A stretch of DNA of 63,370 nt, from positions 1-63,370 of the forward strand of contig JAZDJU010000010.1 of NCBI GenBank assembly GCA_043803685.1, written 5' to 3'. The notes below the pieces were generated by a model. It was not told the DNA's origin, did no database searches, and was given only the letters and a program-made list of their open reading frames with translations. How positions within the stretch are numbered: the first letter of the stretch is position 1; each line of letters starts with the position of its first letter. The stretch is from Candidatus Omnitrophota bacterium (GTDB taxonomy: Bacteria > Omnitrophota > Omnitrophia > Omnitrophales > Aquincolibacteriaceae). The position numbers and the translations under genes are program-made. This document shows, one piece after another, positions 1 through 27,795 of the stretch.

Positions 1-4
1 AGGC

Positions 5-480
5 TTGCATGCGGAAGTGGCGCGTCTCAAGGAACGGATCCTGGATGTGCTCGCCAAGAGCCCGGATGAAAAAGAGTATGTCGCCGCCACACGCAAGCTC
101 TCCCTGCTCAAGCGTCTATTCAGTCTTGAAATGACGCGTTCCGAGTACGAAGAGTTGCGGAATCTGCCTAGTTTATCCAAAGAGCTTGCGGTGGGACTAC
201 AGACTACAGACCAGAGACCAGAGACTAAAACGAAAGGCCTGCAGTCTTCAGTCTCCAGTCTTCAGTCTATTTTCGCGGATGCAGTCGAGTTTTACGAGAC
301 TGCCATCGTCCGCGAAAACAAGATGTTCGCCAACGCTCTGAAGAAAATGGACGAGCGGAAAGAAAAGAACGCCGTGATCGTGACCGGCGGTTTCCACGCC
401 GAAGGTCTCAAGAAACTTGCCGCTTCGCAGGGGTGTGCCTACATGCAGGTCACGCCGCGGATCAACGAGATCTCGAAACG
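5..480 (+). other. Domain of giant ORF: C-terminal part of a TraB/GumN/Tiki (EreA/ChaN-like) fold
   Basis: RENKM (311-325) followed by AVIVTGGFHAEGL (GGFH at 386-397) resembles the RNxxM...hhhGxxH-xGL signature. The rest of the domain lies outside the window. Confidence 0.5.
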
Positions 481-3400
481 CGATCATGAGATCTATCTTC
501 GCTCCATTTTTGGTGCTCGCGATTTTGAATCGTCCCAGATGGGCCAGCCGTTGATCGAAGACGCCTCCATGCGTCAGATCCTTGGTGCGAAGTTGGGTAG
601 TTGGCTTGCTTCCATCCGGGAACTTGTGAAGGGTCTTATTAATTCCGCTCCCGTCCTGGATCGGGCGTCACTTTCATCCGCTCTTTCGAATTCTTCCTTA
701 TTTGGCAACGTAGCCGCAGTTCGCTCGGAAGTTCGCGCCTCGCAGACATTCCTTTACGAGGCTCATGGTGTCCGGATCCATGATCCGGAATTATCCCAAG
801 CGGCCGGCCAGAATCAAATGGCGGAACTTGGTGAAATGCTTGAGGGTGTTGACAATCATAAGATCGCTAGCAATGTGGCCATGCAGCATTTTGCGGAAAT
901 AGCGTCAACATATCCCCGTTCTGTTCGGCAAGCTTTGTCGTTGGAGATCAGTTCCTCTATGCAGTCGCTGGAAGAGGACCCCAGCGGCAACAACGAAACT
1001 GAATTGAATGTTCTGCGCGCAAAGCGAAGGCTGCTGTCGGAGCCCGAATCTTTCGCGACTTCGGCGATCGCCAATCGCTCGGAAGTGCGTAAACTTGGGG
1101 AAGCGGAATTCTATTACAACGCCCATGGGAGCCGGATCCATGATCCAAAGCTAACCCAAAAAGCTGGCGAACAGCAAATGGCGGCGCTTAAAGAGATCCT
1201 CGAGGATGTTGACGGGAACACGATCCAAAGCTCTGAGGCCATGATCGATGTCGCAAAGAGGGTGGCGGAATACAGCCCTTCAGTTCGGAAAGCTTTGGCA
1301 GCGGAAGTCCTCGCTTCCATGGATGTGCTGGAAAGCGGCGCACTGCGTTCTGACAAGACTCAGAGGGAAGTTTTGGTCATGCAGCATCAGCTGCTGACCG
1401 CGGCCGAATCTTTCTTCATCACGGAAACCAGGAAGGCCGCCAGCCGCTCGGAAGTGCGTCAGCTAAAGGGATCAGAATTCTATTACAACGCTCATGGGAT
1501 CGAGATCCATGATCCAAAGCTAACCCAAAAAGCTGGCGAACAGCAAATGGCGGAGCTTAAAAAAATTCTCGAAGACGTTGACGGGAATACGATCCGAAGC
1601 CGTCAGGCCATGATCGATGTCGCGAAGAGGGTGGCGGAATACAGTCTTTCTGCTCGGAAAGCATTGTCAGCGAAGGTTCTCGCTTCTAGAAGGGAACTGG
1701 GAAGCGGCGCGTCTCCTTCTGACAAGACTCAGATAGACGTTTTGGCCGAACAGTATCTTATTCTGATTAGACCCGATTCTTTCTTTATGCAGGAAACCAA
1801 GACGGTTGCCCACCGTCCGGCAGCGAGTGTGCAGGCTATTAAAAAAGCTTTTGGCGCTTATAAGCCTTTTAGCGTGGAGGCCTTTGCTTCCCATTTTAAG
1901 GTCACGGCGGAGGATGCCCGGAAACAACTGGAGAAGATGTGGCGTGCCAGCGACAACATGGACAGGATCAAGAAAAACGGCGCGTATCTTTATTTGTATA
2001 GTCCGATCAGTGTCGCGGTCCAGATTGGGCCGGACGTGAGGCCCGAGGATGTGGCGGATGCTGCGCGAGTGGTGATCAACCATTCTGAAACCAAGGAATT
2101 TTTGGGTGTCACAGCCGAGAGCGCGAGGAAACAGTTGGATGAATTCCTTGCCGCCGGATTCAAAGTGGTTTTGGCGTTCGGCGATTTTCCTGTCACTTTG
2201 ACCAAGGATGGAAAAACAACGGATTTCGAAGCCATGGGGCTAAGGAAGTTTCCGACGGACCTTAAGGCGATTACAGACAAGTTCATGACCCAAACCCTGA
2301 AGTCGAAGGACAGATCGTACGAAACCCTGCGAAAGTTATATCAGGAAGCTGAGTTTATTAGGGAGGCTTCTATTGACCAGCTCATAGGGCAGTTCGGGGA
2401 ATATCTGAAATTGTTTGATTTTAATGAAGAAGAGTTTAGGAATGCTTCGGATCTCACTGCCAGCTTGAAGAAGGAGCATGATCTGAAGGCGAAGATTATT
2501 TCAGAGATAAGCACGAAAACAGAAATCGAGTATGAAATTGGAATTTTGTTTTCCGGGTTGAAGCCCGAAGACGTCAGGGATCTCATTAAGAAGGCGTATG
2601 AGCCGATCGAGGGGATCAAGACGGTTGCTATTTCTGAGAAACTGGCGGAATTCCGCCGGGCTTATACCGTTCAGGCGATCGCTAAGGCTGCGGGAATGAG
2701 CGAAGATCAGGTTGCGGTCCTTTACGGCGGGGGCGGGAATGTGAAGAATTTTGCCGGATTAAAAAAGGCTGGATATGGAGGCGCTTTTATCGGGAGAGCC
2801 TCAGCGCTCGCGAAGGCTGAACCCGGCAAAGATTCAACGGCCAATATCTCTTTTGCCGCGCAGGAAACGGGTGAGAGACTCACTACGATCTATAACGCAA
2901 AATCAACGCGTGCGCCATCGCCCGCCGAATATATGAGCGCCTACGCGGAACGTGGCGTCAATACAGAAAGCGGAGTGAAGATCATTCATGCCGTGAGCCG
3001 TCTTGATTATCGCGCCTGGCAAAGAGAGCTTTCCGGAGAAAAGGTGAGTTCGTTGTTTGAGGATGTCAGTCAGGTTGCGTCCCGTCCACAAGTCACGATC
3101 GTTGCCGGTGCGACGGAAGCCACGCAAGGGATTGGCGCGTATACGGCGCATATTCCTGCTGAGTTTTTGCGTGAAGCCGGAGTGACCCAGGCACTTGTCG
3201 ATCGGACAAAGCCGTATGCAGTCAAGCAGACGCTCAATCTGATCAACGCCGGAATTACGCCGGTTGTGTATGAGAATTGGGAAGGTGTCGCAGAATTTTT
3301 TAAAGCTCTTGGAGAAGAAAATTTAGGCAGCATCGTGGAAATGAATACCGCCGGCATATCCGGCCTGCGGATCACGCCCATTAACGCCCTCCGGCAATTT

Positions 3401-6400
3401 CAAGGCCAGCATCAAGGCGGAGCTGTGTCCAACCGTTCGGAACTGAGAGCGGAAGTGCTGCCGGAAGCGAAATGGATCGAGATCGCTGCCGACGAAGTGG
3501 CGATCAAGCGCGCTTTCGGGACGAATGGGATCCGTTCGGACGATATCGAGATCGACGGCCAGCGGCGCATTGCTGCGGGGACCGCAGACGTGCTGGCGGC
3601 TCAGTGGCGCAAGGCCCATCCGGGGACAGAATTGCCGTGGGTGATGGTGGGATTTGATCCTCGTCCGCAGGGCGATAATGGCTTTACTCCGGGCGAGATG
3701 AGCGAATCCAAAGCCGTCGCGGAGGTTTTTGCGGCCTATGGTTTCAAGGTGTTGTTCGTTCCGAAGGCTGTCGCGGCGCCTTTCATGATCTCGGCGTCCG
3801 GCGAGAACGTGCACCCGAGGGATATTTTTGCCGCCGTGATGAGAACGGCGAGCCACAACGAAGTGGTGGACCCGAAATCCGGCAAGCTGGTGTCCGGGTT
3901 TAAGTTGTTCATGTGGAATGCCCCCGCGGCGGACAGCTTTACGGGACTTATTTCCGCGAAGATCAATGACGCGGAATTTTCTAAAGAAGTGCCGGTGCTG
4001 AACTTCGATCAGGCGGTCATTGAAGGAAAGATCGTGGTGTCAAAAGATGGCGATAACGACGATCCGGATACCGTGGAATTCCGGCGCATGCAGAAAGCCT
4101 TTGATCTCAAAACGATCGGAGACAAGATCCGGGCGAAGTTCCCGGCTTTCAAGATCGCGCTCAATACGATGAATGGAGGCATGTCCCAGTTCGGCCCCCG
4201 CGTACTCCGGGCGATGGGTATTATCAACAATAATAAAGGCTTCTTGGCGTTCAACACGAAGCTCATGAACGATCCGTCCATGAAATCCCAAATGTTGGGT
4301 TGGGTGGAATATCAAGATGCGAATACAGGTGAAATGAAGAGAGTTCGTTTCGCGCCGGATCCGACGCGGGCCTGGATGCGGGGCAAGGATTATCAGGATT
4401 TCGTGGCCCAGGATCCGATGAAGACCCTCGCTCTTTTGATCGACGGGGACGCGGATCGCTTGGTGGCGGAACTCGGCAAAGAGATCATCCCGAACGAGAT
4501 CGGCATGCTCGCCGCTTATTATCTGGCGAAGTACAAAGGTCAAAAGGGGCACATTGTGCGTACGGTGCCGACGACGGGCGGGTTGGACGCGTTGGCGCAG
4601 GCGCTCGGACTCGGGAAGGTGGATGTGACTCCCGTGGGCTCAAAATGGTTTGCGGGTCCAAATAAATATTATGACAGCAATCTAAACGATGTCCTTGTGG
4701 CTGTGGAAGAGAGCGGCCACATTGTTTTCAACAAGAAAGGACAGCTCTTCTTTGATCATTCCATTGGTCTCGCGACGCTCATGCTCGAAATGATGGCTGA
4801 GACGGGAAAGACATGGCAGGAATTGTCGGACGAGATGTGGGCGTTCATTGAAGAAAAGACCGGACAAAAGCGGATCGCGACAGTGCGTGACGGGATCAGC
4901 AAAGAAGATGGCGCCGAGAATTATTATGCTCTCGCGTTGCGTCTCGGTAACCCGTCAGAGGATACGTTTCGGCGTGAATTTGCGACGAAAATGGAAGCAA
5001 CTCTCGCCAAGGCGGGAATTCCGTGGAAGGTTACGAATATGGATATAGCCGACGCGGGCGGCGCCCAGCTTCAGTTCGAAGGCGGGCGGAAGGTGTTCCC
5101 GCGAAAATCAGGAACGGACGGCAGTGTTCGTCTCTACGGCGAAGTGCTCGATACAGAGCGCGATCTGGTGCCTGTCCTGATGAAGAGCATGCGCGAAGTG
5201 ATGGATTTTTTTGTTTCCGCGCAGCGTTCGGAGATGAGAAAAAAGACGTATTTGGCCTCAGCGGCCCTTGGGATTCCAGAGATCGGTAAAAACCTTGCCT
5301 ATTCCGCGGGAGCGGCACTCAGAGCGGTGTTTTGGCCAAATATTATCGATATGAGAAAACAGGGAAAGAACGCGATGGTTCGTAACGACATCCCTTCAGC
5401 CAAAGGCGGAGCTGTGTCCAGCAAACGCTCCGAGGTGCGTGAAGGGGTGCTGCCGCGCGTTGATACGCCGAAGACCCCAGAATGGAAACAATTACGCGCA
5501 TTTGCCAAAGAAATGAAAAAGAAGGCGAATGCTCTCCGGGAACTTTTCCGGAATGATCCTGAGCGGGTGTCAAAGCTCACGATGAATTTGCGTGAGGATG
5601 TTGCATTCGATTTCTCCAAGCAGCGCATTACCGGACCGATTCTGGATACTCTTGTAGCGCTCGCCGAACGGACGGGTGTTTCCGAAAGCATTGAGAAAAT
5701 GTTCACGGGCGCCAGGATCAACGAGACGGAGAACCGCGCGGTGCTTCACGTGGCCCTTCGTAACGTAAAGCGCGATCCGGAAAGCGGCAAGCTCGTCGCA
5801 GCCAATGGACCGATTTTTGCGGACGGAAAAGATGTGATGCCTGGCGTGATCCAGGTGCTGGAACAGATGGAAGCCTTCGTTCAATCGATCCATTCCGGTA
5901 CGCGAGTGGGCTATACCAAAAAAAAGATCAAGAATATTGTCAATATGGGGATCGGAGGTTCGGATCTTGGCGGCAAAATGGCGACTCGTGCGCTCATTCC
6001 TTACCAGTTCAAGAGGAAAGATGGTGTGAACGTTTACTATGTTTCCAACGTGGACGGAACGGACTTTGCCGAAGTGGTCAAGAACCTGGATCCCGAAGAA
6101 ACGATGTTTGTGATCGCTTCCAAGACTTTCACAACAGCCGAAACGATGCAGAACGCGCGATCCGCCAAGGATTGGATCCTCCGGCACTATGGAGTTGATA
6201 CTTCGGATCAGAAAAAAGCAGACGCGGTGGTGAATGCGCACTTTATCGCTTTATCAACCGCTGCAAAACTGGTGCAGGAATTCGGGATCACTCCGGATGA
6301 AGAGCATATGTTCCCGTTCTGGGACTGGGTTGGCGGCCGTTATTCGGTGTGGTCCGCGATCGGATTGCCGCTTGCGACCTACATCGGATTCGATAATTTC

Positions 6401-9400
6401 CTGAAATTTCTCGAGGGCGCGCGATATGTCGACGAGCATTTCAGGACGAAGCCTCTTCGCGAGAACATTCCGGTGATTAAGGCATTGCTCAACATCTGGA
6501 ACGGAAATTTCCTCGGGGCGAGGTCTTTTGCTGTATTGCCCTACGATCAATATTTGAGCCTTTTCCCGGAATTCGCCCAGCAGTTCTTTATGGAGAGCAA
6601 CGGGAAGATCGCAAGCCGGCTCGGTCGATTCGTGCGCTATATCACGGGGCTTATCCTGTGGGGAGCCGCCGGGACGAACGGTCAGCATTCCTTCTACCAA
6701 CTCCTCCATCAGGGAACCCATCTGATACCGGCGGATTTCATCGGTGTCCTCAAGACCCATAATCCTTTGCCGGGGCATCACGAGGAGCTTTTCTCCAATG
6801 TGCCCGCCCAAACGGAAGCTCTTGCTTTTGGCGCTACCAAAGAAGAGGTCAAGGCGTTGCTTGAAAAGGACTTGAAGTACAAAGGACAAGACATTGATTG
6901 GCATGCCGCACAGCAGACCTTCCCTGGGAACAAGCCAACGACTACGATCGCGTTGGATGAAGTCAATCCCGAAACGTTGGGTATGCTGGTGGCCCTTTAT
7001 GAGCATCAGATCTTTGTCGAGAGTGTGGTCCTGAACATCTTTGCGTTCGATCAGTGGGGAGTGCAGCTCGGGAAAAAGGTTGCGCTTAAAGTGCGTGCTT
7101 TCTTGACTGGGGAAAGACCTCCGGAAGAAATCGCATCCGCAGGTATTTCCGCTTCGGGCGAGTGGCTGATCCGCAGATGGCTTACGCGTGGCGGTGGTTC
7201 TCAGGCGGGGGTTGAGTCACAAGGCGGAGCTGTGTCCGAGCAATTCGAGACGCGTCAGCAGGAAAGCCGGGAAATAACAAAAATGCGGCTGGCTTCGATC
7301 CTTAACGGCGTGACCGGAGAAAAGGCGGGCGATAATTTTTTCATGGGACTTGTTGAGGGTTGGGTGAAGGAGTTTCCTGGAGATCTTCGGAGCGAGGTTG
7401 CGGCGGAGATCTCGGCTGCCATGGGAATGCTGGACAAAAGACCTTTCGATGAAACTAGGCTGAAAGTTCTCGAGAAGCAAAGTGAGTTGCTTTCGAGCAA
7501 ACTTCCCGTTGCAGTAAAACAAGCTGACGCGAACCCATCACAAGTTGAGGAGCTTCAAGCATTCCTGAACGAACGGGTTACTCCGTCCACGATCGGGGTT
7601 TCGATGCTGATGAAGGCTGTTGAGAAAGATATGGAAAAATTCGCCCTGCCTTCTCGGGCAGTTCTCCTGGTGGAAGTCAAGGCTGCTATAGAGGAGCAGG
7701 AGCGCCTGCGTGTTGTCGGGACCCAACGGAGTATCATGGCTAAGCAGATTGAATTTCTCTCGCAGGGATCCGCGGATGTCGCCACCCGCTCGGAGGTGAG
7801 GAAGATCGTTGTAGCTGCGTCTGTCGTGGGAGCTCCGGAGATCGGAGCAAACCTCGTCAAGACCATTGTCCGGGAAGGCGCCGTTGTGTCTGGAGCGTGG
7901 AAGGGGAACGAACAGTTTCCTTCCGATGACGTGCAAGTAGTTTCCGGCGAGGGAAAACGTGACCAGAAGTCTAAGGGAAGCAAGCGCTCCGAGGTTCGGT
8001 TTGATGCGGGAAGGGAACCTTCGCCGTACGGTCCGGATGCTTCTCAGGAAGGGTTGAGGCCTCTTTATGAACGGATCGCTTGGGCGCGTGAGCATGCTCC
8101 GAGCTATACCAGGATCAAGAGGATCTACGCGTTTTCGGATCAAAAGCACGGTATGGATCCCAAGGACGCCATTTCTTTCGGCGTTGTGCTGGAAGGTAAT
8201 ACTTCCGCTGACAGCGATGATGTTCTAGTGATCAATCAGAACGCGTCCGTTATGGGCGGTATTTCTGCCGGAGTGCTTGAGCCGGGGACGCATGGTAGCG
8301 TTGCGGAAGCCATTGAGTTCTTCAACAAGAACGTCGCAGACAGCTTGGTGGGTTTGAATGTCTCCCGGCCGGACGAGATCACTGCGAAGATCCTTGAGAT
8401 CGACGAGACCTTACGCAATTTGGCGCGGAGGAGCGATTTGTCGAGCACGAAGACGAAGCAGCGCTTCTCCTATATCGGAGCGGAGATCTCTATCGGTGTG
8501 TCCATGGCCGCCACGTTTGCTCTCGCAGAGGCGTTGGGTGTGCCGACCGAGGTCGTTCTTAACTATCGCTACAATGAATACACGCTCTCGACGGGTTTAG
8601 CGAAAGCGGTTCGCCCGATGAGCATTCCCGTGAATTACAGTGTGGTTTGGGAAGGCGGCAAGCACGGCGTGGCCAAGTATTTAAGCGAACTGATCAGCGA
8701 GGGGGTCATCCAGGACGGTAGCCGTTTCCCGGAAAGATTCAAGGATCAGGCGCTGATCGCCAAGAAGGACAAGAGCATTCTCCTGGCGGCGGTTCCTCCT
8801 CAAGAGCTCCAGATCATGGTCCTTGCTCCTGAATGGGAACAGGCTCGTCTGATCGGGATCAAGTTGACCAAGCTTTATCAGGCAAAACTGAAAGAGCATG
8901 GGATCAAGACCAAGTATGGCGCGGAATCCGGCTTCACAACGGAGCAATTGCGCGACAAGGCTGGAAACCTGATCGATCTGGATCTGGTGTTGGATATTTT
9001 GGGTGAGGCCGTGGACGCTTTGCCGGCTAATGAGGCAAAGTATGTGCGCTATGCGTTGGATATTGCTGCTTCCGAGATGTATATCCCGGAGATCGACATG
9101 TATTACGTCGGTCCCAGCGCGGCCAAGAATGCCGATGGTTTGGTGACGAACGAAGAGTTCACCCAGTACAAGTTGGCATTGTTCCAAAAGTACGGTCGCT
9201 TTATCTCTGTCGAAGATTGGGCCACCGAAGATGAAATAGATCATTGGGAAGGTGCAAAGGCCATCATGGGTTCCATGATCCAGATGGGGGATGATAACAC
9301 TGTCTCACGGGCTGACATGATCAAGAAATTTTCTGCGGTCATGAATGCCCATCTCCAGAAGCCGAATCAGTCGGCTGAAGAGCATGCAGGGATCGAAGCG

Positions 9401-14977: not shown

Positions 14978-16195
14978 ATGATCCAATTTCCGAAGGATTT
15001 TCTCTGGGGAGCGGCGACGGCGGCTTATCAAGTGGAAGGCGGTAATTCCCGCGCGGATTGGTGGCGTTGGGAAAAAGAGGCCGGCAAAGAAAATTCAGGT
15101 GACGCCTGCCGTCATTATGATCTCTATGAATCTGATTTTGAGCTTGCGAGAGAGCTGGGTCATAACGCTCACCGTCTTTCCGTAGAATGGAGCCGCATGG
15201 AGCCGGAAGAGGGGAAGTTCTCCGGCGAAGCGCTCGAGCATTATATCGCCGTCCTTTCGGCCTTAAAGGCGCGGAATATCGAGCCGGTCGTGACACTGCA
15301 CCATTTTACGAACCCGGTCTGGCTTGCCGATGCCGGCGGCTGGGAAAATAAAAAGGCCGTGGCTTTTTTTCTGCGCTATTCGGAGTACGTCGTCCGCGGT
15401 CTGGCCAAGTATGTTCGCTATTGGATCACGATCAACGAACCCACGATCTATTTTTCCCACGCCTATCTTCTGGGCGTGTGGCCGCCGCAGAAGAAGTCGC
15501 TCTGGAAAACGAAGGTCGTGAGTGACCATTTGACCGAGGCGCATATCGGGGTCTATCGCCTGATCCATCAGATATATAAGGAAGAGAGTCTTCCCCGGCC
15601 TTCAGTTAGCATTGCTCAGCACATGCAGGCCTTCGTGCCATGCACACCCAGCGCCAAGAACAAGCTTGCCACGGCTTTGCGCCACCGGTGGTTCAATCTG
15701 GGGCTCATTGAGACGTTCGTGCGTCATAAGGCCTTGGACTTTATCGGGCTCAATTATTACTCGCGGCAGTTGGTGGATCTGGAGCGATGGGGGTTTCGGA
15801 ACCTCGCAACGGACGTCTGCAAAAAGGATCATCATCCGGTCAAAAAGAACGCGCTGGGCTGGGACATCTATCCGGAAGGATTGTGCGATCTTTTGCTCAA
15901 GCTTAAAAAATACGGTCTCCCTATCATGATCACCGAGAACGGGATCTGCACAGCGGATGATACGCTTCGGTGGGAATTCATAGCGGGTCATTTGCAGAGC
16001 ATTCACAAAGCCCTGGAGCAAGGCGTTGCTGTGACGGGTTATCTTTATTGGTCGCTTCTGGATAATTTTGAATGGGACAAGGGATTTGGCCCTCGGTTTG
16101 GGCTGATCGGTATGGATTACAAGACGCAGAAGCGAACCGTCCGCGAAAGCGCCGTCAAATTCAGCGATGTTTGTAAGACGGGGACCTTAGATTAG
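14978..16195 (+). CDS. Glycoside hydrolase family 1 (beta-glucosidase-like)
   Basis: FPKDFLWGAATAAYQVEG, TINEP (acid/base), ITENG (nucleophile), WSLLDNFEW. Confidence 0.96.
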   Translation: MIQFPKDFLWGAATAAYQVEGGNSRADWWRWEKEAGKENSGDACRHYDLYESDFELARELGHNAHRLSVEWSRMEPEEGKFSGEALEHYIAVLSALKARNIEPVVTLHHFTNPVWLADAGGWENKKAVAFFLRYSEYVVRGLAKYVRYWITINEPTIYFSHAYLLGVWPPQKKSLWKTKVVSDHLTEAHIGVYRLIHQIYKEESLPRPSVSIAQHMQAFVPCTPSAKNKLATALRHRWFNLGLIETFVRHKALDFIGLNYYSRQLVDLERWGFRNLATDVCKKDHHPVKKNALGWDIYPEGLCDLLLKLKKYGLPIMITENGICTADDTLRWEFIAGHLQSIHKALEQGVAVTGYLYWSLLDNFEWDKGFGPRFGLIGMDYKTQKRTVRESAVKFSDVCKTGTLD

Positions 16196-19922: not shown

Positions 19923-21551
<1,629 letters not shown>

Positions 21552-21956: not shown

Positions 21957-23711
<1,755 letters not shown>

Positions 23712-25245: not shown

Positions 25246-27795
25246 TTATTCCGGGAACCTGGAGCGGTCGAGCTCGAAGATTCTGACGCAAGTCCCGCCG
25301 GATAGGGATCCTTCGCTAATAAACGGCTTAAAAAAAGAGAGGCCTTCCGCTTGTAGGTAATACAACCGGAAGAGCATCGACCGGATAAGCTTCGCGTCTG
25401 CCATGACCGCATAAAGCGATTTCCCGTCCTGGAAAAGAAGGACCGAAAGATCCGTCAAAGGGTCGGCATAGATCTTTTCGACCAACTGTCCCTGATCGAG
25501 ATAGAAGAGACTCACGGGCCGGGTGATCCGTTTTTTGGATGGCTCTGCGATCAGCGTATCCTTGATCGCCCAGTTCACCTTCACACAAGGATCGGCGCCG
25601 AATGTAAGTTCGTCTCCTTCTTGACTCACCAGCGGCAAGGCGGGGCGATAATCCAGGAATTTCCCCGTGATGTCTAAAAAAACCTGGAGATAACTCGGAG
25701 GCGTCTTGTTTCCCAACCGGCCCCAAACAGCTTCCAGGCCCGTCTTCTGCCGCGTTCGCCATGCTTCTGCTTTCCTGAAATCCCACCGGGCGAACCGGGT
25801 CAGAGCAACATTTTTTTCGATCAAATCGCTGTCGAGAGAGACGTACATGGGAGGCAGCGCTTCCTTGCCATGGGTCCTGTCGAGAAACGCATTTTTCTGC
25901 TGCGCGGTCATGGACGAAGGCAGCGCTGAAAACGCTTCTTTTCTCCCAAGTCTCACGATCTTCAGGATGAGCTCGACCGCATCCGCGGTTTTCATGCCGG
26001 ATCTTTCCAAAAATTCAGCCGCGTTGTCCCTGCGGGTGTCCAGCATGCGAAGGATCCCGGCGGATAAATCCTCATCGTCGGTAAAGAACGCTCGCGCGAG
26101 CCAATACATCACGTGAGTGTTCTGAGTGCCTCCGTCCACGGGAACCCGGCGACGGCCGATCGCGCTGATAAAATAGCCCGGCGACCATGAGCTGTTGACG
26201 ATCGCGTCTTCCGGCGTCCGGGTCCTCAACTGCTGGAACGCCCGGAACCAAACATCGTCCATGATGAGCCGGCTCTCGCGAGCGGAGTTATGCGCGGCTC
26301 CAAGGATCGGCGTAAAAAAGATCAGGGACATCAAAAGGATCGCTGCGGGTTTCCTGCATTTCGCGAGAAAATCCGGAGCCGGGCTATTCCATGGCCACGG
26401 ACCCAGGAGCCGCGACAGATTTTCCGCCGCAAAACCCACGAACACCGACAGCGGAAGCGCGAGTAGAACGGCGAATCTCACCGACTGAAGCGTCATCAAA
26501 AAAAGGGGCATGCCGACCAGAACAAAGAAAAGGATCCTGAAAAGGCCGTATGGCTCCTTGCTGAGAAGAACGCGCCTTGTCTCGAGCGCGATCCCAAGGA
26601 TCGCAAAACTGAAAGTGACATAATTGCCTGTCTTGTGGATCAACCCGTTCACCGAAGTGGGCATGATCTCGCCCAGGGTGGGCAAGATGCTCGGCCAGAG
26701 ATCGAATTTCAAAAACATGAAATCCTGAAACGCTCCCCACGCCATGCGGATCGAATCGACCATGCCGGCCGGCGTAATGAACAGAGCCAGGAACACCATT
26801 GTCCCTGATCCATACCCCCCAAGGAATCTGAAAGCAGTCCGGACCACCGGAGGAGGTTTCATCTTGCCAAGCAGGGTCATGATCCCAGCGCTCACCAGAA
26901 GGCCGCCGGAGGTCAGAACGAAAATAAAGAGCCACCCATGCCAGAAAAGAACATAAAGACCCGTCAAGCATGCCGCGCTCAGCGCATAAAGCAGTATGTT
27001 TTTCCCTTGTCTCATCGCCATAAGAACGAGGGAAAGGATCGCCAGAGGAAAAAGGTGATTGTAAGGATCCGTGTCGTACCAGCCTAAGGTGGTTCGCTGT
27101 ATAAAGATCGGCGAAAGCGCCAAGGTCGTCATGCCGAAGATCGAGGCGAGAAGACCCAAGCCGATGGCCCTGGAAAAGAGCCAAAAGACGAACGGGATCA
27201 AAAAGACCAGAAAAAGCGATCCGTACGCAACCGCTTCGACCACCGTAATGTCAGGGAAAAACCGGGAGAGGCATTTGTAATAGAAAGCGCCCACGTAGGG
27301 ATGAAGCAAGAAAGGCTCCCAAAATCCGACAGGCGCCATCCCGAGCGGGCTTAGGACCTTCCACGATCTTCTGGCCCCGCTCTGGCCGGTCTCCAGCACT
27401 TGTTCAGTCTGGTAGAGGTAATGGTAGGGGTCCGCTTCAGACAAGTATTTCAATCGCCAACTCCAGGGAACCCCCTTGGAGAGGCTTTGCGCCACGGTTT
27501 CGATCGCCGCGTTATATTGAACCGGATCTTTCCGGATCGCCTGCTCTGCCAGTTCCGCTAATTTCTTTTCTCTCTCACGCTCTGACGCTTCCGTGATTTC
27601 TCGTTTTGGGGTTTTTGATAACTGGTCTTTGATCCGGTTTTCAACGACTCTCTTGGCGATCTCGCGAGGTGATCCAAAATGAAGAAAGGGTCCGCCATGG
27701 ATCGCATAAGTCCGGAAATAGATGGCGAAAAAACTGACGACAAGGATTCCCATCAGCGCGGTGATCCCATAGACCCGCGTTCTTCTAGATCGCAT
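25246..27795 (-). CDS. STT3/PglB/AglB-family oligosaccharyltransferase-like protein
   Basis: EADPYHY, GWYDTD and TLGE motifs, many TM helices, and a periplasmic TPEDAIVNSSWSPGY..DGGTQ segment. Confidence 0.85.
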   Translation of the reverse strand: MRSRRTRVYGITALMGILVVSFFAIYFRTYAIHGGPFLHFGSPREIAKRVVENRIKDQLSKTPKREITEASEREREKKLAELAEQAIRKDPVQYNAAIETVAQSLSKGVPWSWRLKYLSEADPYHYLYQTEQVLETGQSGARRSWKVLSPLGMAPVGFWEPFLLHPYVGAFYYKCLSRFFPDITVVEAVAYGSLFLVFLIPFVFWLFSRAIGLGLLASIFGMTTLALSPIFIQRTTLGWYDTDPYNHLFPLAILSLVLMAMRQGKNILLYALSAACLTGLYVLFWHGWLFIFVLTSGGLLVSAGIMTLLGKMKPPPVVRTAFRFLGGYGSGTMVFLALFITPAGMVDSIRMAWGAFQDFMFLKFDLWPSILPTLGEIMPTSVNGLIHKTGNYVTFSFAILGIALETRRVLLSKEPYGLFRILFFVLVGMPLFLMTLQSVRFAVLLALPLSVFVGFAAENLSRLLGPWPWNSPAPDFLAKCRKPAAILLMSLIFFTPILGAAHNSARESRLIMDDVWFRAFQQLRTRTPEDAIVNSSWSPGYFISAIGRRRVPVDGGTQNTHVMYWLARAFFTDDEDLSAGILRMLDTRRDNAAEFLERSGMKTADAVELILKIVRLGRKEAFSALPSSMTAQQKNAFLDRTHGKEALPPMYVSLDSDLIEKNVALTRFARWDFRKAEAWRTRQKTGLEAVWGRLGNKTPPSYLQVFLDITGKFLDYRPALPLVSQEGDELTFGADPCVKVNWAIKDTLIAEPSKKRITRPVSLFYLDQGQLVEKIYADPLTDLSVLLFQDGKSLYAVMADAKLIRSMLFRLYYLQAEGLSFFKPFISEGSLSGGTCVRIFELDRSRFPE

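Follow-up and report, generated by a model that had tools for sequence, protein, structure and literature searches.

Natural fusions of glycolytic enzymes, such as Thermotoga phosphoglycerate kinase-triosephosphate isomerase (PGK-TPI) and stramenopile triosephosphate isomerase-glyceraldehyde-3-phosphate dehydrogenase (TPI-GAPDH), join two enzymes of adjacent steps and are cytoplasmic, organellar, or viral. Here, we describe a giant gene of Candidatus Omnitrophota bacterium at the start of contig JAZDJU010000010.1 (assembly GCA_043803685.1; the whole stretch analyzed, positions 1 to 63,370 of the forward strand, is hereafter called the window). Its product likewise places several central-carbon enzymes on one polypeptide but combines five non-adjacent steps, namely TPI-like, phosphohexomutase, glucose-6-phosphate isomerase (PGI), enolase-like, and GlpX-like (class II fructose-1,6-bisphosphatase, FBPase) modules, and belongs to proteins of a signal-peptide type with motifs at the module junctions.

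The closest described systems are giant proteins of Omnitrophota themselves, in whose open reading frames (ORFs) few annotated domains are recorded in the accessible text of Seymour et al. 2023. The available part of West-Roberts et al. 2023 (10.1101/2023.11.21.568195) reports TPI, PGI, FBPase, phosphoglucomutase/phosphomannomutase (PGM/PMM), aldolase, and pyruvate phosphate dikinase (PPDK) domains in such proteins, regards them as apparently extracellular, and proposes that sugars are processed before import. The "archaeovorins" of that study are also encoded by giant Omnitrophota ORFs, and their proteolytic cutting into several products is suggested, whereas the cleavage points are called unknown and enolase is not mentioned in the text available. 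In contrast to archaeovorins, the protein in the window is shorter (about 4.3 thousand residues), has neither membrane helices nor dockerins in its visible part, and draws its FBPase-like and enolase-like modules from divergent families that Pfam misses or barely sees. A later preprint (bioRxiv 10.64898/2026.06.07.730766), as far as its accessible text goes, defines a "multi-enzyme metabolic cluster" class of Omnitrophota long proteins, in which, as here, many enzyme families tile one polypeptide and signal peptides are frequent. That survey treats proteins of at least 10 thousand residues at the Pfam level, and its sugar co-occurrence module includes PGM, starch synthase, GT1, ROK kinase, and hexokinase; no cargo set of TPI, PGI, enolase, and FBPase and no junction motifs were found in the accessible text.

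The giant frame in the window is thus a new instance of an already described class of enzyme-bearing giant proteins. What it adds are hidden families of GlpX-type and enolase-type modules, a probable permutation of TPI, a cargo that is coherent yet shuffled and non-directional, and a sister protein in which a phosphofructokinase (PFK)-like module replaces the FBPase-like one.

Results

The bin from which the window derives (2.89 Mb, 133 contigs, 91.3% complete, 6.6% contamination) contains it as contig C10, and window positions 2-11872 (+) form a single stop-free frame of 3956 amino acids (aa) that runs from the contig start to a stop codon and is open at its 5' end. The five enzyme modules span positions 1829-11176 in the order given above (Table 1), in agreement with the extent of 2000-11100 in a preliminary description of this DNA, which had been made from the sequence alone. 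The identities proposed there proved correct for all five modules by Pfam/NCBIfam, by a family profile (A1, below), and by an AlphaFold2 model, even for the GlpX-like module. When the whole frame was scanned with Pfam, indeed, four of the five modules were seen, with PGI (aa 1870-2370) at 610 bits, PGM_PMM_III at 58 bits, Enolase_C at 52.6 bits, and TIM at 44.5 bits, and the GlpX-like module escaped detection. About 30% of the visible frame is without annotation. Pfam and NCBIfam scans also found no kinase or dehydrogenase families in the visible 3956 aa, which upholds the earlier remark that the cargo has no kinase or redox step, and no membrane helix was found in the same region except for one buried helix of the enolase-like module.

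Table 1. Features of the giant frame in the window and of related frames in the same bin
Feature	Position in window (nt)	Residues (aa)	Strand	Remark
Last third of shared N-terminal domain	2..736	1-245	+	ends at first RSEVR
Three ~120-aa repeats	737..1828	246-363, 364-486, 487-609	+	translation and internal DNA repeat
TPI-like module	1829..3448	610-1149	+	Pfam TIM 54.1 bits, 3 stretches (module-wise scan)
Phosphohexomutase (PGM/PMM-type)	3449..5239	1150-1746	+	bordered by RSELR and RSEMR
67-aa mini-module	5240..5440	1747-1813	+	RSEMR to RSEVR; no family match
Full-length glucose-6-phosphate isomerase	5441..7123	1814-2374	+	starts 8 aa after RSEVR
226-aa tail behind PGI	7124..7801	2375-2600	+	closes with RSEVR; no family match
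66-aa mini-module	7802..7999	2601-2666	+	between two RSEVR; RSExR borders
Enolase-like module	8000..9736	2667-3245	+	divergent type, conserved in giants
GlpX-like module (class II FBPase fold)	9719..11176	~3240-3725	+	profile and AlphaFold2 fold
C-terminal 228 aa and stop	11186..11872		+	follows last RSEVR; no family match
Nine R-S-E-x-R motifs, 15 nt each	722..11185		+	at module junctions
Other giant frames	contigs C59, C57, C123, C67, C98, C114, C47, C80, C12, C49, C34, C101, C84			RSExR; N-terminal domain where complete

As judged from their sequences, the PGI and phosphohexomutase modules appear near-canonical. The Pfam match of PGI (610 bits) covers profile positions 1-471 of 486, and NF001211, the NCBIfam equivalog of PGI, is matched at 677.9 bits (cut-off, 492) over profile positions 5-525 of 544. 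The translation includes the stretches DWVGGRYS, FMESNGK, GTNGQHSFYQ, and FDQWGVQLGK, which we take to be PGI signature motifs, and this module is the sole full-length PGI of the genome. In the phosphohexomutase module, PGM_PMM_III (60.8 bits) and PGM_PMM_I (28.8 bits) scored above their cut-offs in a module-wise scan, PGM_PMM_II reached 17.4 bits (cut-off, 29.3), PGM_PMM_IV was unreported, and the score to the NCBIfam equivalog of GlmM was far below its cut-off. All four signature loops (TASHN, DGDADR, EESGH, and RKSGT), presumably the phosphoserine, metal, sugar, and phosphate loops, align with those of two separate PGM paralogues of the genome, and PGM modules that are 63-71% identical are found in other giants.

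The GlpX-like module follows on the enolase-like module as a fusion that lacks an intervening RSExR. No Pfam family matched this piece at E<=1, PF03320 matched nothing in the genome at E<=0.1, and a single-sequence (phmmer) search of the PDB with the piece returned no match. Nonetheless, among 1.84 billion library proteins, 73 representative relatives reached E<=1e-3 and 34 of these reached E<=1e-30, and a profile made from an alignment of 13 family members (A1) matched class II FBPases of the PDB in all of its nine best matches (1ni9, E 1.9e-10). The AlphaFold model of the module (pLDDT 92.5, pTM 0.93) gave 24 Foldseek matches at E<=0.001 (4e-18 to 5e-13; TM by target, 0.74-0.81), every one of them to a class II FBPase, with the next match at 4e-3. 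The GlpX-like identity is considered to be real, since the family profile and the confidently predicted fold both give class II FBPase. The invariant or near-invariant columns of A1, furthermore, lie in the GlpX-aligned blocks ADGxAV, GDEG, RH, DGD, GRSGxxE, and TGAS, and the residues D81, E110, D159, D298-G299-D300, and E328 of A1 sit in blocks aligned to 1ni9 and 5a5l; we assume that the acidic ones among them are the metal ligands of GlpX. While the fold is shared with GlpX (E. coli 1ni9, 2r8t, and 3d1r; Francisella 7js3; Synechocystis FBP/SBPase 3rpl; Foldseek E 4e-18, TM by target 0.79-0.81) together with the motif blocks, the module is longer (~480 aa against ~320-350 aa), just 14-19% identical, silent to PF03320, and always embedded in larger proteins. 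The module has the class II FBPase fold, as modeled, with conversion of fructose 1,6-bisphosphate (FBP) to fructose 6-phosphate (F6P) as the predicted function.

In the enolase-like module, a module-wise Pfam scan detected Enolase_C above its cut-off (56.6 bits) and Enolase_N below it (25.1 bits), and the TIGR01060 equivalog of enolase was matched at 69.9 bits against a cut-off of 300. All 32 PDB matches at E<=1e-3 are enolases, and the enolase-like modules of the giant relatives P0006 and P0011-P0014 score 636-744 bits to the copy in the window. Alignment with the genome's own enolase and with that of M. tuberculosis (7ckp), through the stretches ALDIAASE, SVEDW, GDDN, LQKPNQ, and GAESG, shows that the module retains the three metal ligands (Asp/Glu/Asp), both catalytic residues (Lys and Glu), and the SHR motif. 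The loops binding the phosphate and the second metal are not kept; the Ser loop reads GGISAG, and SGETED is reduced to a G with a six-residue gap. Compared with 7ckp, the N-terminal domain and the barrel come in the normal order, but the module differs by insertions of ~40 and ~25 aa and by a C-terminal extension of ~60 aa. On this sequence comparison, its chemistry could be the interconversion of 2-phosphoglycerate (2-PG) and phosphoenolpyruvate (PEP) or a related dehydration.

The TPI-like module, which opens with a small N-terminal helical domain, has partial and out-of-order matches in place of a collinear (beta-alpha)8 barrel. Positions 83-126 of the PF00121 profile correspond to aa 686-729 and positions 140-236 to aa 843-938, and positions 50-91 of TIGR00419 correspond to aa 1027-1069, i.e., after strand 8, so that the strands run in the order 4-5, then 6-8, and then a piece resembling 3-4. 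The score to the NCBIfam TPI equivalog was far below the cut-off, and a weak PDB match was to residues 57-94 of the archaeal TPI 1w0m (E 0.98). Catalysis by TPI depends on His95, Glu165, and Lys13. In the module, NHSE and AYEP align to the His and Glu motifs, and the Asn/Lys pair is located tentatively at IYNAKS or INNLKA following strand 8. The only homologue detected, P0082 (35% identity), conserves INHSE, AYEP, YGGGG, and IGRAS, and the phosphate loops are among the parts kept in both. An AlphaFold2 model made from the resulting two-sequence alignment was unusable (pLDDT 45.6), and because the model is so poor, the reading is drawn from motif order, which makes a circular permutation or partial duplication of the barrel probable. 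In P0086, the closest full-length relative, aa 2809-3300 have the Enolase_C barrel preceding Enolase_N, i.e., a swapped domain order; this enolase and the rearranged TPI-like module suggest that permutation is common in giant cargo.

The same genome encodes a separate gap-pgk-tpiA cluster, eno, class II aldolase (fba), PPDK, two PGM-family genes, and four PFK paralogues. The separate tpiA and eno score 339 and 440 bits, respectively, against 54 for the TPI-like and 58 (Enolase_C) for the enolase-like module. Also present is a transaldolase-PGI fusion of 957 aa (TAL_FSA 270 bits and partial PGI 41 bits; G000:C47:1116-3989, minus strand), and frames of this kind (~960 aa) recur in most genomes of the family, of which the fusion is probably the housekeeping PGI. 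The modules of the giant are extra copies, since separate tpiA, eno, PGM-family, and transaldolase-PGI genes exist. Stand-alone duplicates, which the preliminary description had taken as a sign of a non-housekeeping role, were therefore found for these four but not for FBPase, for which searches with PF03320 and PF00316 gave no separate gene (classes III and IV were left unsearched, and class V was covered only via one module query).

The frame belongs to a family of giant frames, at least 17 in number and 1003-10126 aa in length, that make up ~8% of the 2.9-Mb genome and share the pentapeptide R-S-E-x-R. Its membership is evident from the shared N-terminal domain and from the motifs at the junctions. 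Nine of these motifs, starting at nt 722, 1076, 1445, 3434, 5225, 5426, 7787, 7985, and 11171, divide the frame into protein-sized pieces. We counted the motif in all frames of at least 100 aa in the genome and called a stop-free frame with at least two motifs RSExR-rich; the 17 such frames, totaling 76,279 aa, contain 162 of all 216 motifs, and 161 scorable motifs compare with 1.6 expected from composition. The motif is placed a few residues ahead of domain starts; PGI, for instance, begins 8 aa behind it, and in another giant a J-domain follows it immediately. Its flanks are not conserved. Its codons vary, with the first Arg encoded by CGY at 137 of the 162 sites (85%; background 40%), the Ser by TCN at 158 (98%; background 68%), and the last Arg without bias. 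Such codon bias may mean that the junctions have a common origin or that a constraint acts at the nucleotide level. A full-text literature search for "RSEVR" gave nothing relevant among the matches listed. Both mini-modules of ~66 aa are flanked by RSExR and have a common "G.PEIG.NL" stretch by eye; cutting at the junctions, if it occurs, could set them free as small peptides.

Twelve complete paralogues have an N-terminal domain of ~570 aa directly behind a hydrophobic, positively charged N-terminal segment, which reaches a Kyte-Doolittle value of at least 1.6 in nine of them and is recognizable by eye in all 12. Signal-peptide-like starts were also noted by eye in 19 of 22 relatives in one set and in seven of nine in another. 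The frame in the window is truncated at its 5' end by the contig edge and begins ~380 residues into this domain, so that ~380 N-terminal residues lie beyond the contig and the whole protein is estimated at ~4.3 thousand residues; aa 3-178 align with residues 386-568 of P0003, 367-539 of P0007, and 351-570 of P0086. A frame at the end of contig C115 was considered as the missing 5' end and rejected; it belongs to another gene because its sequence differs despite the same domain. The domain has invariant HIQxAH, EG, and TGGFH motifs, gave no Pfam match in four paralogues and the G045 giant, and as a profile (A3) gave no meaningful match in the PDB and only an unnamed Omnitrophota cluster in the Atlas. 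These motifs may resemble those of Tiki/TraB-type metalloproteases, with one weak match (E 0.0055) pointing the same way.

In terms of cargo, five central-carbon modules in one frame are more than chance would give, as only one of the 16 other RSExR-rich giants has a pathway enzyme (hexokinase). Pfam families in those 16 frames include hexokinase, starch synthase GT5/GT1, a glycogen-debranching domain, NAD-epimerases, nucleoside-diphosphate kinase (NDK), and a xylose-isomerase-like barrel, and further DnaJ, beta-CASP nuclease, SecA, histidine kinases, response regulators, GNAT, and HEAT. The check proposed in the preliminary description, whether GAPDH, PGK, or aldolase occur in other RSExR proteins, had a negative outcome; they were absent from the RSExR giants examined (the 16 frames, P0003, P0007, P0086, and the G045 giant) and were found only in relatives with neither RSExR nor the N-terminal domain. 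Among such relatives, P0004 has GAPDH and class I aldolase; P0005, PGK and PPDK; P0006 and P0012, GAPDH, PGK, TIM, and enolase; P0010, isocitrate lyase, TIM, class II aldolase, malate synthase, and GAPDH; P0011, cofactor-independent phosphoglycerate mutase (iPGM) and enolase; and P0014, PGK, FBPase_3, TIM, and enolase.

We then scanned 25 further bearers of the GlpX-like module with Pfam (those within a size limit, of 34 eligible among 67 new matches), 16 of which hold another Pfam family and three of which have only unrelated or nucleotide-handling cargo. These bearers also carry PGM, ROK kinase, UDP-glucose pyrophosphorylase, transketolase with transaldolase, and TIM. Class I or DeoC/LacD-type aldolases are found among the newly scanned bearers. 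An aldolase adjoins the GlpX-like module in P0004, P0015, and P0031, as does one of the DeoC/LacD type in P0025, P0030, and P0033, and a cupin-type PGI directly follows it in P0038, P0043, P0044, P0047, and P0050. The cargo is hence non-random as to pathway, contrary to what would have spoken against the coherence first proposed, because 20 of the 23 annotated relatives with a GlpX-like module carry a central-carbon or sugar enzyme, and 12-13 carry aldolase or PGI.

The cargo is also shuffled, even within the genus. P0086 (4281 aa, nine RSExR, signal-peptide-like start) matches the protein in the window in the N-terminal domain at 210 bits, in PGM at 924 bits, in PGI and its tail at 988 bits (the score between the PGI modules), and in the C-terminus, but between these parts it instead holds WD40, a PFK-like module, and a different enolase, with no GlpX-like module. 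In a congener, a giant of 7591 aa combines PGI and PGM with a Glu/Leu dehydrogenase. In a survey of 61 genomes of the order, which covered only PGI, the A1 profile, GlpX, and PFK, the A1-type module occurred in five genomes and in none of the seven congeners. Full-length PGI occurred in 11 of the 61 genomes, in 10 of these inside giant frames, with the exception lying within a tal-pgi-pyk cluster. Canonical GlpX stood alone in 16 genomes and in none of the eight of the genus, and weaker GlpX matches lay inside large frames in 10. PFK was almost always separate, with divergent PFK-like modules inside giant frames in four genomes. Two frames, G024:C14:650-9598 (minus strand, 5067 aa; also with a partial PGI) and G030:C43:25091-28174 (plus strand, 3967 aa), combine PFK-like and GlpX-like modules and hence place opposing steps on one polypeptide.

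As to the remaining parts of the frame (Table 1), the first two of the ~120-aa repeats close with RSEVR and the third with a degenerate HRPAA; the internal DNA repeat is 84% identical, and Pfam matches are all below threshold. The first ~50 aa of the PGI tail are common to P0086, and residues 27-228 of the C-terminal region align with its C-terminus (80 bits). Two HSP20 genes lie directly downstream of the giant gene (12128-12583 and 12756-13463, plus strand), and two genes of Cpn60/TCP-1-family chaperonins follow 8-12 kb downstream (19923-21551 and 21957-23690, minus strand); a link of these neighbors to the folding of the giant protein is possible. Positions 25246-27795 (minus strand) encode an 849-aa protein with an N-terminal domain of STT3 oligosaccharyltransferase (60 bits), near which are genes for a Polysacc_synt flippase (13543-14865) and a GH1 glycosidase (14978-16195).

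Discussion

We hold with moderate confidence that the frame encodes a member of a family of giant proteins carrying accessory, probably active, exported, and shuffled sugar-phosphate enzymes. The family layout would consist of a signal-peptide-like start, the ~570-aa N-terminal domain, and protein-sized modules split by R-S-E-x-R. As accessory paralogues, the modules would interconvert dihydroxyacetone phosphate (DHAP) and glyceraldehyde 3-phosphate (GAP; TPI-like), glucose 6-phosphate (G6P) and glucose 1-phosphate (G1P; phosphohexomutase), F6P and G6P (PGI), and 2-PG and PEP (enolase-like), and would convert FBP to F6P (GlpX-like), working beside, not instead of, the separate glycolytic genes of the cell. 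They are probably catalytically active, because catalytic motifs are retained in all five, albeit with some enolase loops changed. Their site of action would most likely be extracytoplasmic, tethered to or released from the cell surface or the periplasm, possibly via cutting at the RSExR junctions, and the cargo would be drawn from a swapped pool of central-carbon and glycan-metabolism modules within a frame whose N-terminal domain, PGM, PGI, and C-terminus are conserved.

Several points weigh against this account. The N-terminus of the protein itself is off the contig, and its signal peptide is deduced from paralogues; sugar phosphates are cytoplasmic metabolites; and the ATP- or NAD-dependent cargo of sister giants (PGK, PPDK, hexokinase, NDK, and dehydrogenases) would be hard to account for outside a cytoplasm. 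The TPI-like fold failed in modeling, and, as far as sequence tells, the enolase-like module has altered substrate loops. With no separate FBPase found and the sole full-length PGI in the giant, furthermore, the protein could have a housekeeping role in the cytoplasm, and both the separate copies and the absences are risky to rely on because the bin is 91% complete and 6.6% contaminated.

These points lead to the alternative of a membrane-tethered metabolon at the cytoplasmic face, in which the protein would serve as the cell's own FBPase and PGI and, with PGM, feed the synthesis of glycogen or surface glycans. Its substrates belong to the cytoplasm; neither GlpX nor a class I FBPase turned up as a separate gene here, and canonical GlpX is present in none of the eight genomes of the genus as against 16 of 61 in the order; of the 11 genomes with a full-length PGI, 10 have it inside giant frames; other giants carry hexokinase, starch-synthase GT5/GT1, and a glycogen-debranching domain; and, as argued in the accessible text of bioRxiv 10.64898/2026.06.07.730766, close to half of the long proteins are anchored and have cytoplasmic domains. 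On the other hand, paralogues and relatives begin with positively charged, signal-peptide-like segments, and no later membrane helix would return the cargo to the inside. The transaldolase-PGI fusion of most family genomes can be the housekeeping PGI, and the enzyme combination is not conserved in congeners. Nor are the five steps contiguous; among them, only FBP to F6P to G6P to G1P connects, with TPI lacking aldolase and enolase lacking its neighboring steps, so that a self-contained metabolon from PEP to hexose phosphate is not encoded. One of the four PFK paralogues may also be reversible. Because paralogues and relatives start signal-peptide-like, export is favored over such a metabolon, which we consider unlikely; export, with a signal for this protein assumed from its paralogues and P0086, would be the simplest and most likely topology.

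The preliminary description had proposed, as an option beside a metabolon, a purpose-built, cofactor-independent gluconeogenic toolkit, exported or delivered to a host, that pushes carbon toward hexose phosphates. The part on export fits the signal-peptide-like N-termini of paralogues, and this protein has no ATP- or NAD-dependent family and does have an FBPase-type module. The GlpX-like module is often beside an aldolase or before a cupin-type PGI, i.e., in consecutive gluconeogenic steps; isocitrate lyase and malate synthase are present as well in P0010, as is PPDK in P0005; and no Pfam scan or precomputed Pfam list of the giants showed pyruvate kinase. A fixed gluconeogenic kit is nonetheless unsupported. 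In P0086, PGM, enolase, and PGI are accompanied by a PFK-like module and by no GlpX-like one, PFK-like and GlpX-like modules co-occur in the frames of G024 and G030, and the cargo commonly includes GAPDH, PGK, PPDK, hexokinase, ROK kinase, adenylate kinase (ADK), NDK, and dehydrogenases. The labels "cofactor-free" and "gluconeogenic" thus describe this protein and are not rules of the family for cofactor use or flux direction, and without aldolase, GAPDH, PGK, and phosphoglycerate mutase (PGAM), this protein on its own could bring neither PEP nor triose phosphate to hexose phosphate. Our sample points to FBPase-bearing and PFK-bearing cargo sets that are not separated, or to cofactor-free sets that are no commoner than chance, and we regard such a toolkit as improbable.

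A more far-reaching version of the exported-enzyme account would be that Omnitrophota possess a second, Sec-exported central carbon metabolism in the form of giant polyproteins, which are cut at RSExR after export to release enzymes outside the cytoplasm and whose flux direction is set by module swap. The cutting would possibly be done by the conserved N-terminal domain itself, and the release would be into the coat, the periplasm, or the cytoplasm of attached prey, where FBP, triose phosphate, and PEP of the prey would be turned into hexose phosphates for uptake or polymer synthesis; the swap between the FBPase-like module of this protein and the PFK-like module of P0086 would set the flux strain by strain. 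In this full form, the proposal is doubtful.

Glycolytic enzymes moonlight on the surfaces of other bacteria, and the modules might be enzyme-derived but non-catalytic parts of a surface protein for binding, adhesion, or scaffolding, in line with the far divergence of three of them (TIM 54 vs 339 bits, Enolase_C 58 vs 440 bits, no Pfam GlpX), the changed enolase loops, and the large insertions and rearranged order of the TPI-like module, but this is very unlikely given that conservation at 25-50% identity concentrates on catalytic and metal-binding motifs, that PGI and PGM are near-canonical, and that adjoining modules in relatives follow the reaction order.

Conclusions

Standard annotation misses or underrates two families in these proteins, a GlpX-type phosphatase of 480 aa and a giant-specific type of enolase. 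Modules missed in giant frames bias metabolic reconstructions, in which FBPase and PGI may be called absent in Omnitrophota, and KEGG-style surveys may also overlook the transaldolase-PGI fusion. The clean borders of the modules suit expression tests, and the swap of FBPase-like and PFK-like modules between sister proteins offers a way to test what the cargo does. Should the modules prove active and truly exported, glycolytic or gluconeogenic chemistry would take place outside the bacterial cytoplasm, where no textbook pathway map allows it, and this, if true, would bear on how the ultra-small and possibly predatory Omnitrophota feed.

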